Shown: positions 27,463-29,139, numbered from the stretch's first letter. The stretch is 64,000 nucleotides of DNA from a virus (IMGVR_UViG_3300001336_000001:42836-106835), one strand, 5' to 3'. The notes: generated from the letters alone by a model not told the origin. Numbers and translations: made by a program.

Positions 27463-27553
27463 TGGTAGGTGCGGTGGGATTCGAACCCACGTTGGAGATT
27501 TCTCTCACCCGATTAAGAGTCGGGACCGTTCGACCAGCTACGGATACACACCT
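27463..27553 (-). tRNA. tRNA, class-II-like (long variable arm), anticodon loop CTCTTAA (apparent anticodon CTT); CCA encoded
   Basis: Acceptor AGGTGTG/CGCACCT, anticodon stem CCCGA/TCGGG, variable hairpin GAGAGAAATCTC, T-arm GTGGGTTCGAATCCCAC. Folded by eye. Confidence 0.5.
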
Positions 27554-27560
27554 AAATTAG

Positions 27561-27633
27561 TGCACCTGGAGGGCCTCGAACCCTCTACCCTTCCGTTAAA
27601 AGCGGAATGCCCGTCCACATGAGCTTCAAGCGC
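27561..27633 (-). tRNA. tRNA-Lys (anticodon TTT)
   Basis: Acceptor GCGCTTG/CAGGTGC, anticodon arm TTCCG-CTTTTAA-CGGAA, T-arm GAGGGTTCGAGGCCCTC. Confidence 0.75.
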
Positions 27634-27696
27634 AATTGTGTTCAATAAATCTGAGTGTTTAGTGTCACTGAACAAGCTATTTTAATGAACAGTTTG

Positions 27697-27778
27697 TGCG
27701 CTCGGAAGGAATCGAACCTTCGTTGTCATGATAGACCCTGATTAAAAGTCAGGAGCATAGCCATTCTGCCACGAGCGC
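27697..27778 (-). tRNA. tRNA, class-II-like, anticodon loop CTTTTAA (apparent anticodon TTT)
   Basis: Perfect acceptor GCGCTCG/CGAGCGC, anticodon arm CCTGA-CTTTTAA-TCAGG, 15-nt variable region, T-arm GAAGGTTCGATTCCTTC. Confidence 0.5.
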
Positions 27779-27904
27779 ATATATTTTTTCCATTAGCACT
27801 CGTAACCATTTTTAGCCGAGTGCTTTAACGTTTAGATTTTCGTTTTAATTTAATTGTTAAAGCTTTCATAATTTTTATTTTTTAATTGTTTTTTATTATT
27901 TTAG

Positions 27905-27976
27905 TGGAGCGGGTGGGAATCGAACTCCCATCTAAGCCTTGGCAAGGCCTTGTAATAACCATTATACGACTTCCGC
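27905..27976 (-). tRNA. tRNA-Gly-like (anticodon GCC) with irregular acceptor and T-stem pairing; possible pseudo-tRNA
   Basis: The D-arm TCGTATAATGGTTATTAC and anticodon arm AGGCC-TTGCCAA-GGCTT are canonical. The 3-prime end GGGAGTTCGATTCCCACCCGCTCCA cannot be paired cleanly with the 5-prime GCGGAAG. Confidence 0.4.
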
Positions 27977-28004
27977 ATTTCTTAAGTTTTAATTTATCTA
28001 TTTG

Positions 28005-28079
28005 AGCAGCGAACCAGATTCGAACTGGCACCTCGGACTTGGAAGGCCCATATGCTAAACCATTAAACACCACCGCTGC
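28005..28079 (-). tRNA. tRNA-Gly (anticodon TCC)
   Basis: Acceptor GCAGCGG/TCGCTGC, anticodon loop CTTCCAA, T-arm GCCAGTTCGAATCTGGT. Confidence 0.7.
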
Positions 28080-28217
28080 AATTTGTGCCTCTCTCTGCAC
28101 CCTTCATACCCCCTTTGTATTCTGTTAATCTCCTAAGACCGTTTGCTACGCTTGATATTAAATCTCAGCCCTTATAAGGATTTTCCTAACGGTAAAGCGG
28201 TATCAAAAACCAGTGTG

Positions 28218-28289
28218 AGCACCCACCCTGGCTCGAACAGGGGACTCAAGATTACAAATCTAGTATTTTTCCAACTAAACTATGGGTGC
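28218..28289 (-). tRNA. tRNA-Thr (anticodon TGT)
   Basis: Perfect acceptor GCACCCA/TGGGTGC, anticodon loop TTTGTAA, T-arm CCCTGTTCGAGCCAGGG. Confidence 0.65.
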
Positions 28290-28304
28290 TTATTTATTAT
28301 ATTG

Positions 28305-28387
28305 TTGGGGGGGAGGGATTCGAACCCCCGAACTCTTTCGAGACCTGATTTACAGTCAGGCGCCTTTAACCACTCGACCACCCCCCA
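28305..28387 (-). tRNA. tRNA-Tyr (anticodon GTA), class II
   Basis: Anticodon arm CCTGA-CTGTAAA-TCAGG matches bacterial tRNA-Tyr. Long variable arm. T-arm GGGGGTTCGAATCCCTC. Confidence 0.8.
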
Positions 28388-28407
28388 ATTATGTATTTTA
28401 CTCAAAG

Positions 28408-28490
28408 TTGTGGAAGTAGGATTCGAACCTACACTGAGAAAATTCTCCCTGATTCAAAGTCAGGAGGCCTGCCAATTAGCCGATTCCACA
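28408..28490 (-). tRNA. tRNA, class-II-like, anticodon loop CTTTGAA (apparent anticodon TTG)
   Basis: Acceptor TGTGGAA/TTCCACA, anticodon stem CCTGA/TCAGG, variable hairpin GAGAATTTTCTC, T-arm GTAGGTTCGAATCCTAC. Confidence 0.5.
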
Positions 28491-28547
28491 ATAAATTCTA
28501 ATTCTACGCTCGGTTGTTCACCTCTATGAATTAGTAACAGTCTTACG

Positions 28548-28622
28548 TAGAGTAGGCGGGACTCGAACCCACATGATGTCCATGTCCCAAACATGGCGGC
28601 TTACCAATTAGCCCACTACTCT
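28548..28622 (-). tRNA. tRNA-Pro (anticodon TGG)
   Basis: Perfect acceptor AGAGTAG/CTACTCT, D-arm GGCT-AATTGGTA-AGCC, anticodon arm CCATG-TTTGGGA-CATGG. Confidence 0.75.
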
Positions 28623-28682
28623 ATTTTAATTACCCAATATGTCAATGAACATTTGAACTTGTTTTATGTTTTGCTAAAAAAA

Positions 28683-28718
28683 GACAATAAAAAAACCCGA
28701 TTCTTTTGAAATCGGGTT
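28683..28718 (-). terminator. rho-independent terminator (hairpin AACCCGATT/AATCGGGTT followed by a T-run on the minus strand)
   Basis: Read directly from the sequence. It ends the micro-ORF transcript. Confidence 0.55.
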
Positions 28719-28744
28719 TGAAATATCGTTTGTTGTTTATTTTA

Positions 28745-28855
28745 TCAAATAGTAACTAAATCACTACTCACAACATGATATGACACACCCGTCACACTAG
28801 GTTTTCCACCTTGCGTTTGTTTCGGTTGATAATATGTCATTCCTGTTGTTTTCAT
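28745..28855 (-). CDS. micro-ORF (36 aa, MKTTGMTYYQPKQTQGGKPSVTGVSYHVVSSDLVTI) between a promoter and a terminator
   Basis: ATG at 28855, stop at 28745-28747. The upstream promoter and leader are duplicated at 53567..53733. Confidence 0.3.
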   Translation of the reverse strand: MKTTGMTYYQPKQTQGGKPSVTGVSYHVVSSDLVTI

Positions 28856-28884
28856 TTTTTATTCGTTTATTAATTAAATATATG

Positions 28885-28915
28885 CAAATATACAAAAAGT
28901 TTTTTATATGTGCAA
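28885..28915 (-). promoter_or_regulatory. Bacteroidetes-type promoter (TTGCAC-N17-TATATTTG)
   Basis: Reverse complement of caaatata(28885-28892) and gtgcaa(28910-28915). Part of an 80-bp repeat shared with 53680..53760. Confidence 0.5.
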
Positions 28916-28986
28916 GTTTTTTTTATTTTTTTTCAGAAAGGCATTATTTACATCCAAATTGCTTTTTTTGTTAATTTGCTGAAACC

Positions 28987-29061
28987 TTTCTTTAGTAGCG
29001 AGGGCAGGACTCGAACCTGCGTAGTTCGACTTATGAGACCGAGCTGGAACCACCTCCAGTC
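28987..29061 (-). tRNA. tRNA-Met/Ile2 type (anticodon CAT)
   Basis: Anticodon arm TCGGT-CTCATAA-GTCGA. T-arm GCAGGTTCGAGTCCTGC. The acceptor has 6 bp plus a 1-72 mismatch. Confidence 0.6.
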
Positions 29062-29067
29062 TACCTC

Positions 29068-29139
29068 GCAATGTTGACTACCATAAGGGACTCGAACCTT
29101 TTACCTCCACCCCCAGTGGGCGTTACACTTCCCTCGTGC
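29068..29139 (-). tRNA. tRNA of canonical 72-nt layout with an atypical anticodon loop CACTGGG (A at position 33; anticodon CTG?)
   Basis: Acceptor TTACCAT/ATGGTAG, D-arm GCAC-GAGGGAA-GTGT, T-arm AAAGGTTCGAGTCCCTT. Confidence 0.45.

Follow-up and report, generated by a model that had tools for sequence, protein, structure and literature searches.

Five tRNA genes on the minus strand of the viral DNA stretch IMGVR_UViG_3300001336_000001:42836-106835 (64,000 nucleotides (nt) in full, hereafter the window) combine the base-paired, long variable arm of class II tRNAs with anticodons of class I amino acids, namely lysine (two genes), glutamine, isoleucine and histidine. In bacteria, long variable arms are the textbook preserve of the tRNAs for Leu, Ser, Tyr and selenocysteine (Sec). 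The interpretation favoured here, with moderate confidence, is that the five genes are genuine elongator tRNAs of a Bacteroidota jumbo phage, in which a class I identity is joined to an apparently selected arm in a mostly phage-borne architecture.

Folds of the five long-arm genes

Measured as the stretch from the 5-bp anticodon stem to the T stem, the variable region comprises 17, 15, 15, 15 and 13 nt in the Lys(CUU), Lys(UUU), Gln(UUG), Ile(GAU) and His(GUG) genes, respectively, versus 4-5 nt in ordinary class I tRNAs. The genes, together with the hairpin of the first, are located as follows.

27463..27553, minus strand: tRNA-Lys(CUU), long arm, 91 nt including an encoded CCA; ARAGORN; Rfam RF00005, 49.6 bits; variable hairpin present in the RNAfold minimum free energy structure
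27495..27506, minus strand: variable-arm hairpin GAGA-GAAA-UCUC of tRNA-Lys(CUU); ARAGORN, RNAfold
27696..27778, minus strand: tRNA-Lys(UUU), long arm, 83 nt; ARAGORN; Rfam, 59.8 bits; five-arm cloverleaf in RNAfold, z = -3.2
28407..28490, minus strand: tRNA-Gln(UUG), long arm, 84 nt; ARAGORN; Rfam, 56.8 bits; cloverleaf in RNAfold
52641..52727, minus strand: tRNA-Ile(GAU), long arm, 87 nt; ARAGORN; Rfam, 51.5 bits; cloverleaf in RNAfold
53159..53242, minus strand: tRNA-His(GUG), long arm, 84 nt; ARAGORN; Rfam, 43.0 bits

The variable region of Lys(CUU) reads U GAGA GAAA UCUC CAAC, and a 3-nt linker precedes the D stem of this gene. In the long-armed Lys(UUU) gene it reads GUC UAUCAU GAC AAC and is accompanied by a 3-bp D stem; in Gln(UUG) it is GAGA AUUU UCUC AGU, with U1:A72 as the first acceptor pair and U8-C9-G10. 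Ile(GAU) carries GUGC GAAA GCAC GAU, and His(GUG) carries G GUC UAAC GAC AU. RNAfold pairs the last three as GAGA-AUUU-UCUC (Gln), GUGC-GAAA-GCAC (Ile) and GUC-UAAC-GAC (His). The discriminator base is A in the two Lys genes, in Gln and in Ile, and C in His. The CCA of Lys(CUU) is encoded at 27463-27465; most other tRNA genes of the window are without it, and the phage has a CCA-adding enzyme.

The anticodon loops are all 7 nt long (CU-CUU-AA, CU-UUU-AA, CU-UUG-AA, CU-GAU-AC and CU-GUG-AA). Positions 1-71 of the RF00005 model are aligned in all five genes, with the surplus bases placed as an insertion in the variable region, and the scores of 43.0-59.8 bits compare with a gathering score of 29 bits. 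RNAfold, which uses no tRNA prior, returns the variable hairpin in five of five genes and the full five-arm cloverleaf in four. Each variable region exceeds 10 nt and contains a stem-loop of 3-4 bp, as in class II tRNAs, and none of the genes bears a Leu, Ser or Tyr anticodon, on which ARAGORN, the Rfam model and RNAfold are concordant. The D stems are of 3-4 bp and their loops of 8-11 nt contain GG, with G18-G19 present in all five. The features of pseudogenes are absent: scores lie over the threshold, stems are intact and relatives retain the arm with compensatory changes. The five genes are members of the tRNA family and are structurally class II.

These results bear out the original prediction, in which long variable hairpins had been read by eye on tRNAs with CTT, TTT, TTG, GAT and GTG anticodons: ARAGORN, RF00005 (43-60 bits) and RNAfold all recover them, at the positions where they had been placed and, according to ARAGORN, on the minus strand. 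The argument that the pattern is no parsing artefact also holds, as the three methods agree on 7-nt loops followed by a variable region of 13-17 nt, and the Tyr(GUA), Ser(GCU) and Ser(UGA) genes of the window fold conventionally. A covariance-model fold, for which it had been allowed that the anticodons might move to Leu or Ser identities or the loci score as pseudogenes, leaves the anticodons unmoved, at scores well above threshold and without classing the genes as pseudogenes. The stem GAGA/UCUC is indeed common to Lys(CUU) and Gln(UUG) (27495-27506 and 28436-28447). The recent duplication proposed from it is not established, because the two bodies differ at 21 of 54 positions, slightly under the typical 25-35.

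Other readings of the folds were rejected. Mis-assigned anticodons are ruled out, given that ARAGORN, the Rfam model and RNAfold yield identical ones. An intron was discarded by reasoning, the inserts being simple hairpins of 8-12 nt without 3-nt bulges; as regards an archaeal-type intron, the host is inferred to be bacterial from a type IX secretion sorting domain (see below), and the hairpin covaries like a retained helix. Copies of a dispersed mobile hairpin were likewise dismissed, each hairpin being found once only in the window.

According to ARAGORN, the window contains 19 tRNA genes in two minus-strand clusters (27463-29148 and 51292-53319), and the long arm is present on 5 of its 16 tRNAs with class I anticodons. 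Two further genes of the first cluster serve for comparison.

27560..27633, minus strand: short-arm tRNA-Lys(UUU), variable region 5 nt; ARAGORN; Rfam, 44.0 bits
28304..28387, minus strand: conventional class II tRNA-Tyr(GUA), variable region U CUC GAAA GAG UUC; ARAGORN, Rfam model

The two long-arm Lys genes flank the short Lys(UUU) gene, so that long and short isoacceptors coexist. The Tyr(GUA) gene has the closest body in the window to those of the long-arm Gln, Lys(CUU) and Lys(UUU) genes (13-17 mismatches in 54 positions). No tRNA-Leu was found in the window, and no aminoacyl-tRNA synthetase among the window open reading frames scanned.

Amino acid identity and the genetic code

Acceptor ends were compared across 4,257 unique phage and array tRNAs. 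The pair U1:A72 occurs in 25/36 long-arm and 144/187 short-arm Gln genes, and C73 in 15/17 long-arm and 91/128 short-arm His genes. Among the remaining long-arm genes, Asn combines U1:A72 (28/41) with G73 (36/41) and Trp combines A1:U72 (8/11) with G73 (11/11); U73 is found in 12/14 Cys and 17/24 Thr genes, A73 in 40/44 Ile genes, and Lys carries A73 in 139 of 207 genes and U73 in 58. In the same comparison, nearly all Leu and Tyr genes combine A73 with G1:C72 or G1:U72, and Ser mostly has G73, so that none of the three shows the 1:72 and N73 marks that distinguish Gln, His, Asn, Trp, Cys and Thr. A73 alone cannot separate Lys and Ile from Leu and Tyr, and the exclusion of a Leu or Tyr identity is weaker for the Lys and Ile genes of the window. 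In the window itself, U1:A72 in the long-arm Gln gene and C73 in the long-arm His gene depart from the acceptor ends of Leu, Ser and Tyr, and the 3' spacer of 3-4 nt typical of long-arm tRNAs departs from the arm geometry of Leu and Ser. Furthermore, when tRNAs are matched by acceptor stem and N73, the nearest neighbour specifies the same amino acid for 128/240 long-arm genes, compared with 163/300 short controls.

Codon usage was assessed in one gene, the phage RNase R, against 80 homologues of 50-57% identity (presumed cellular), at columns conserved to at least 80%. AAA falls on Lys in 11/13 columns, AAG on Lys in 2/3, CAC on His in 4/6 and ATA on Ile in 10/13; one of the six CAC columns is Tyr, and no AAA or AAG column is Leu, Ser or Tyr. 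These columns indicate that the phage genome is written in the standard code.

The data bear on a recoding scheme in which Leu-, Tyr- or Ser-type class II tRNAs with mutated anticodons, charged by the leucyl-, tyrosyl- or seryl-tRNA synthetase (LeuRS, TyrRS, SerRS), would misinsert their amino acids at Lys, Gln, Ile or His codons. Neither LeuRS nor SerRS of bacteria uses the anticodon for recognition, and A73, which four of the five genes carry, is the base of Leu and Tyr. The arm, with its 3-4 bp stem and 3-4 nt 3' spacer, is nearest to that of Tyr, and the Gln and both Lys bodies have the window Tyr gene as their closest relative, as noted above; G9 and a G/C-rich D stem are also common to long-arm Lys and class II tRNAs. 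The scheme is nevertheless very improbable in view of the cognate marks kept by Gln, His, Asn, Trp and Cys, the 4-bp D stem that 73% of long-arm Lys genes share with short Lys and not with Leu, an arm unlike that of Ser, and the occurrence of AAA, AAG, CAC and ATA at conserved Lys, His and Ile columns. A whole-body k-nearest-neighbour classification placed about 20% of the long-arm Lys genes with Leu, but its leave-one-out accuracy was 64.5% overall and 53% for ordinary Lys; as a means of telling a Lys from a Leu scaffold it was set aside at that accuracy, and the acceptor-end signatures and the core and acceptor neighbours were used instead.

Cognate isoacceptors are preferred over missense tRNAs because of the acceptor-end signatures, the acceptor neighbours and the standard codon use. 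Consequently, it is quite probable that the five are cognate, translating tRNAs, which would most likely be charged with the amino acids of their anticodons (Lys, Lys, Gln, Ile and His). Since recognition by the synthetases for these four amino acids relies on the anticodon and the acceptor end, the extra arm should be tolerated in charging and decoding. The swap of anticodons on a Leu or Ser scaffold that had been suggested at the outset is not supported, given the cognate acceptor ends, an arm geometry different from that of Ser and Leu, and the standard code; what remains of it is a common long-arm core, described below.

The histidine gene requires separate comment. Bacterial tRNA-His is expected to encode G-1 opposite C73; the window gene has C73, with T at position -1 (53243), and G-1 is not encoded. 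T at this position occurs in 35 of 105 phage His genes with C73, a group enriched in A8 (10/35) and in a possible 8:65 pair (17/35). The window gene also has A at position 8 and, alone of the five, permits an alternative 8/4 register through an A8-U65 pair, in which it resembles the phage (8/4) tRNA-His of Mukai et al. (PMC5389517). The following gene of the window encodes an enzyme that could supply the G-1 that this tRNA gene is without.

45153..45953, minus strand: Thg1-like tRNA-His guanylyltransferase; Pfam PF04446, E = 5.5e-25

Long variable arms on unusual anticodons are known from two other groups. The first comprises the nematode nev-tRNAs, reportedly Leu-type bodies charged with leucine. 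According to Hamashima et al. 2012 (PMC3333845), they have a class II shape with class I anticodons (Gly CCC, Ile UAU) and decode an alternative code for leucine. The phage tRNAs share with them the class II shape and the class I anticodons, but unlike these eukaryotic molecules they keep cognate acceptor marks, and phage codon use is standard. The second group, the allo-tRNAs, is characterised by an 8/4 or 9/3 acceptor/T branch, a long, Sec-like D stem capped by a tetraloop and a discriminator that is usually G73 or U73 (Ser identity); its members come from metagenomes and phages and also lie close to mobile or toxin-antitoxin loci (Mukai et al. 2016, PMC5389517). A long arm on many non-Ser anticodons, with UAU prominent, is common to allo-tRNAs and the phage genes. 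The five window genes differ in folding 7/5 (ARAGORN, Rfam alignment), in their ordinary D arms and in their A/A/A/A/C discriminators.

Arm structure, shared core and occurrence in phages

The variable regions of 191 unique long-arm Lys genes have a length of 15 nt at the median; 82% of these regions form a hairpin of at least 3 bp, and the folding energy is below zero for 85%, compared with 41% of shuffled sequences. The usual layout is one unpaired base, a stem of 3-4 bp, a tetraloop and a tail of 3-4 nt with C as its last base. GNRA loops cap 85 of 163 hairpins, and the tail is catc, cacc or caac in 96 of the 191 genes (the CANC tail). The 3' spacer of 3-4 nt compares with 1-2 nt in Leu and 1 nt in Ser, whose stem is of 4-7 bp, and the geometry as a whole is nearest to that of Tyr. 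G9 and a G/C-rich D stem, both common in class II tRNAs, set the long-arm Lys genes apart from the short ones, and the 4-bp D stem of 73% of them is like that of short Lys and unlike that of Leu.

Covariation was tested in a gapless 49-column alignment of 62 distinct long-arm Lys sequences. The arm helix is 90.3% paired. At each of its three pairs both partners are replaced in a good part of the sequences (23, 29 and 27, respectively), and each pair occurs in five types, a degree of change comparable to that of the anticodon and T stems. The covariation score of 0.652 contrasts with 0.162 for shuffles, none of 500 of which reach it, and with values no higher than 0.144 for slid controls. It appears that selection acts on the arm.

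The arm resembles that of the canonical bacterial class II families (Leu, Ser, Tyr, Sec), with which the phage tRNAs share the 7/5 cloverleaf, the base pairing of the variable arm and, frequently, G9 with a G/C-rich D stem; in arm size and 3' spacer the likeness is greatest to tRNA-Tyr. Unlike those families, they bear the anticodons and acceptor marks of Lys, Gln, Ile and His (elsewhere of Asn, Thr, Cys, Trp and Met); their D stem is mostly of 4 bp, and unlike Leu and Ser they have a CANC tail and a spacer of 3-4 nt.

The covariation also bears on the view that the arms are tolerated junk, that is, variable-loop insertions drifting in and out under relaxed constraint, with some of the genes decaying as pseudogenes. 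Several clearly degenerate tRNA-like elements do occur in the window, a homologue in a Cellulophaga phage is labelled 'tRNA-Pseudo' in GenBank, related phages may hold the long or the short version at the same array slot, and the short variable regions of about 40% of phage tRNA-Leu genes (given below) show arm length to be labile. Such a drift would leave unexplained a stem that covaries as functional stems do, a preferred loop class and conserved tail, the recurrence of the arm in distant contigs with compensatory changes, and five genes well above the Rfam threshold with stems intact; it is considered highly unlikely.

The core of the long-arm tRNAs, defined as linker, D stem, anticodon stem with loop flanks and T arm (arm and anticodon excluded), is common to several identities. 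Of 240 non-Lys long-arm tRNAs, 115 find their closest core in another long-arm class I tRNA, compared with 14 of 300 short controls, although long-arm tRNAs make up only 11% of the comparison pool. In 41 of these 115, the nearest core comes from a different amino acid, mostly Lys; in these, the core mismatches average 6.2 of 39 positions and the acceptor mismatches 10.5 of 15, which is near random. The clearest single case is provided by Cellulophaga phage phi4:1, the sole isolated-phage homologue found, whose long-arm Asn(GUU) gene is the one labelled 'tRNA-Pseudo'. Its D arm, anticodon stem, variable arm UGAGAuuuAUCUCCAuC and T arm are the same as those of the window Lys(CUU) gene, and its acceptor stem is of the Asn type (U1:A72, G73). 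Collectively, these comparisons suggest that acceptor stem and anticodon were changed together on a shared core, and a modular exchange by recombination or gene conversion within tRNA arrays may be inferred.

The occurrence of the architecture was surveyed with a gapped pattern consisting of a tRNA-Lys anticodon arm followed, 16-33 nt on, by a T arm. At least 119 viral contigs matched. In 185,579 bacterial and archaeal species genomes (one genome per species), 97 stretches matched; these lie mostly on contigs of metagenome-assembled genomes, and most are in dense tRNA arrays (median 9 tRNAs per 8 kb). The scarcity in cellular genomes was measured for Lys only. In the Lys-selected loci, ARAGORN reported further long-arm genes for Thr(UGU), Ile(UAU), Asn(GUU), Met(CAU), Cys, Trp, Phe, Gly(UCC), Gln(UUG) and His, and no long-arm Ala, Asp, Val, Gly(GCC), Arg(UCU) or Thr(GGU) genes.

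As a control against selection bias towards Lys, 120 clusters were fetched through a tRNA-Asp pattern, with a variable region of at least 9 nt counted as a long arm. In these clusters, 38 of 899 tRNAs with class I anticodons are long-armed (4.2%), and they are distributed over 26 of 115 loci and over 22 of the 57 arrays of at least eight tRNAs. Asn(GUU) (9/55) and Ile(UAU) (7/15) lead, with Lys at 1/39, and no long arm was seen there on Gln (0/41), His (0/35) or Ile(GAU) (0/34). With five long-arm genes, of which three are of these rare kinds, the window is at the extreme of a general phenomenon.

Targeted viral scans validated with ARAGORN yielded, among the matches listed, 25 unique long-arm Gln(UUG), 7 His and 10 Ile(GAU) genes. 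Several of these have arms clearly akin to those of the window: for Gln(UUG), a near-identical gene in L397 (GAGAAAUUUCUCAGU) and a further relative in L377; for His(GUG), a gene in L513 (GGUCUUACGACAU); and for Ile(GAU), those of L564 (GUGCUUUUGCACAAC) and L567, with the arms GUGC-UUUU-GCAC and GUGA-UUAU-UCAC. Relatives of the Lys(CUU) gene in L003, L012, L033 and L046 retain the arm with compensatory changes, for example GUGA-GAAA-UCAC.

In the close relatives L003, L012, L046 and L096, the order of the tRNA array at window positions 27463-29148 is kept, but the state of the arm at a given slot differs. Gln(UUG) and the third Lys gene, Lys(UUU), are short in these relatives and long in the window; Thr(UGU) has a long variable region (12 nt) in three of the relatives and a short one in L012 and in the window. 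The state of the arm thus apparently turns over between close relatives by gene replacement and not by simple insertion or deletion. The same-slot genes are too diverged to reveal a simple insertion of the arm, and they offer no clean before-and-after pair.

Many phage tRNA-Leu genes are themselves short-armed: of 312 unique genes, 126 are short (about 40%) and 186 long. Examples of short, class I-like tRNA-Leu are found in loci L002-L337 (viral contigs) and in L001 at 5703-5778. Bacterial LeuRS is independent of the variable arm, which the short phage Leu genes fit. Phage Ser and Tyr genes nearly always retain the long arm.

Long arms are 4-5 times enriched where position 36 of the anticodon is A or U, i.e., in readers of codons starting with A or U. 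In the control clusters (L218-L337) the counts are 31/403 versus 6/366 (Fisher p = 7e-5), and in the Lys-selected clusters (L002-L120) 68/512 versus 20/559 (Fisher p = 6e-9). This bias, which concerns Lys, Asn, Ile, Thr, Met, Cys, Trp and Phe, fits somewhat better with a fold-stabilising role, in which the arm, G9 and the G/C-rich D stem would rigidify A/U-rich, fast-made, under-modified tRNAs and make them independent of host modification, with no link to defence. The lack of long arms on Asp, Val, Gly(GCC) and Thr(GGU) in the surveyed clusters is in keeping with such a role, as are the distinctive G/C-rich core that accompanies the arm and the GNRA loops and conserved tail, which suggest a defined tertiary function. 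The Gln(UUG) and His(GUG) genes of the window have G at position 36, however, and most phage tRNAs with the same anticodons do without the arm; the stabilising role is regarded as unlikely.

Possible role of the arm and genomic setting

Genes for tRNA repair and maturation are unusually dense between and around the two tRNA clusters of the window, with more than one metallophosphoesterase among them. Beside the Thg1-like gene already given, the following were identified.

18329-19879, minus strand: RNase R; domain search
20780..21917, minus strand: adjacent genes for the HAD domain of 'Swiss Army Knife' RNA repair proteins (HAD_SAK; PF10307, E = 9e-14) and a 2H (LigT/2'-5' ligase-like) phosphoesterase (PF13563, E = 7e-10)
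25805-26233, minus strand: YqeY-like protein; domain search
36162-36917, minus strand: metallophosphoesterase; domain search
37829..39016, minus strand: RlaP, pol-beta-type nucleotidyltransferase of RNA repair pathways; PF10127, E = 5e-24
42920-43957, minus strand: second RNA ligase; PF09414
44571-45080, minus strand: HD_4 protein (HD domain); domain search
45957..47075, minus strand: T4 Rnl1-type RNA ligase (tRNA anticodon-loop repair type); PF09511, E = 4e-13
48589-49506, minus strand: AAA_33 P-loop kinase; domain search
56305..57447, minus strand: CCA-adding enzyme (tRNA nucleotidyltransferase); PF01743, E = 1e-38, plus PF12627

Judging from these predicted functions, the phage would invest heavily in tRNA integrity. 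The dense repair set makes a role in tRNA-targeted conflict plausible and does not by itself show one. In T4, Pnkp and Rnl1 repair the host tRNA-Lys cleaved by PrrC. The window likewise combines its three tRNA-Lys genes with genes for an Rnl1-type ligase, a P-loop kinase, phosphoesterases and a CCA-adding enzyme, but the T4 system involves no structurally altered phage tRNAs, and the link between repair genes and long arms was not found in other phages.

An anti-nuclease or self-marking role of the arm in such a conflict is tentatively proposed. The arm would give phage tRNAs a shape unlike that of host tRNAs, and this difference would make the phage copies of frequently attacked tRNAs poor substrates for host nucleases, on the assumption that the phage repair and maturation enzymes tolerate the arm. 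Precedents exist: the tRNA-Tyr of phage T5 resists retron-Eco7 owing to its distinctive variable loop, and Septu cleaves tRNA-Tyr in the variable loop (PMC13096335); a bacterial Schlafen protein cuts tRNA-Lys(UUU) (PMC13056530). Phage escape variants of attacked tRNAs have been described for T5 tRNA-Lys against PARIS, for T5 tRNA-Tyr against retron-Eco7 and Septu, and for the anticodon loops of mycobacteriophage tRNAs (PMC11464382, PMC11555353, PMC13096335, PMC10264068). The window genes would be comparable in being phage copies of attacked tRNAs with altered shape or sequence, the altered part of T5 tRNA-Tyr being the variable loop itself. They differ in that the escape variants have a few substitutions in a normal architecture, whereas these class I tRNAs gain a whole arm.

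A broader version of the proposal, also speculative, is that phages keep a third structural class of tRNA, a long-arm chassis re-targeted to many class I amino acids as a self-mark. The chassis would consist of the GNRA-capped variable arm, the CANC tail and the core with G9 and a G/C-rich D stem, and it would be re-targeted by exchanging acceptor stem and anticodon together. Tagged in this manner, the phage tRNA pool might survive host tRNA nucleases, or the attack of the phage itself on host tRNAs, and would still be recognised by the phage repair and maturation enzymes.

A different use of the arm would be as a decoy, with the long-arm tRNAs distracting anticodon nucleases, synthetase-directed toxins or other tRNA-binding defences without translating, and with ordinary tRNAs doing the decoding. 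The short Lys(UUU) gene between the two long-arm Lys genes suits this idea, as does the dense tRNA-repair context of the window. Long-arm and short Lys(UUU) genes occur together in 30 of 89 viral loci; the loci are partial stretches, and counts of coexisting tRNAs are lower bounds. In the same partial loci, a long-arm Lys(UUU) gene is the only Lys tRNA seen in 35 of the 89, which counts against a decoy. In favour of one, overexpression of phage tRNA-Tyr gives host tRNA-Tyr partial protection from Septu (PMC13096335). Conserved cognate acceptor marks and an intact T arm would be needless in a pure decoy, and the D loops of the five window genes all have G18-G19. Non-translating decoys are rated as unlikely; given the conserved identity marks and the covariation, both the decoy reading and neutral drift are among the less likely accounts of the arm.

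Several points weigh against the preferred interpretation of genuine, cognate tRNAs or against the role proposed for the arm. ARAGORN folds of metagenomic contigs underlie all the surveys, so that a number of calls must be expected to be wrong. U73 takes the place of A73 in 28% of long-arm Lys genes, compared with about 5% of short ones (L002-L217), which could mean altered charging in a subset of them. The synthetases LysRS, AsnRS, HisRS and ThrRS are class II enzymes and approach the tRNA from the variable-loop side; a long arm could hinder charging by enzymes of this class. The 4-5-fold bias at position 36 is not predicted by nuclease evasion. Within about 7 kb on either side, RNA-repair genes are found near 3 of 119 long-arm Lys clusters and 4 of 120 control loci; with no enrichment between these counts, the repair context of the window is not a general correlate of the arm. 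Known variants that escape PARIS or mycobacterial nucleases are altered in the anticodon stem-loop and not in the variable region (PMC10264068). The functional steps suggested for the arm are all deduced.

The literature searched, which included a review of non-canonical tRNAs and was incomplete in coverage, gave no account of phage tRNAs that unite a 7/5 fold, a long arm and a class I identity. Annotation pipelines appear to rely on the rule that long arms belong to Leu, Ser, Tyr and Sec. If the long-arm Lys, Gln, Ile, His, Asn and Thr tRNAs are functional and cognate, about 4% of the tRNA genes with class I anticodons in the sampled phage clusters may be systematically misinterpreted or dropped. 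Such tRNAs would also reveal the extent to which synthetases, EF-Tu and the ribosome accept an extra arm, which would be useful in the design of orthogonal tRNAs, and the apparent joint replacement of acceptor stem and anticodon around a common core would amount to a natural, modular switching of tRNA identity. Furthermore, the arm offers a testable handle on tRNA shape, beyond anticodon-loop sequence, as a battleground of phages and tRNA-cleaving defences.

The window has a G+C content of 30.2% and encodes an integrase, sigma factors and an endolysin-type amidase. A Bacteroidota host is suggested by a type IX secretion sorting domain, and assignment to a jumbo phage is based on an identical RNase R protein recorded on a contig of 287,855 bp. 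A tyrosine integrase is uncommon for a jumbo phage. A transposon-type gene directly adjoins the first tRNA cluster.

12472-13284, minus strand: tyrosine integrase; domain search
29868-31049, minus strand: TnpB/IS605 OrfB-type gene (HTH, OrfB and TNB domains), directly adjoining tRNA cluster 1
34105-35715, minus strand: protein with a type IX secretion C-terminal sorting domain; domain search

Four degenerate or odd tRNA-like elements are also present on the minus strand of the window.

27908-27976, minus strand: Gly(GCC)-like element with acceptor mismatches; Rfam, 34.6 bits
29076-29148, minus strand: 'Gln(CUG)' with A33 and stem mismatches, called by ARAGORN only; the closest bodies are those of the Lys(UUU) genes
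52448-52530, minus strand: tRNA-like element with a good acceptor and T arm and an aberrant middle; tmRNA model, 28.7 bits
52951-53025, minus strand: tRNA-like element with a 6-nt anticodon loop and a 9-nt variable region; 34.9 bits

The middle of the element at 52448-52530 can form an arm ACAUG-CUUAUAU-CAUGU, with UAU in its loop.

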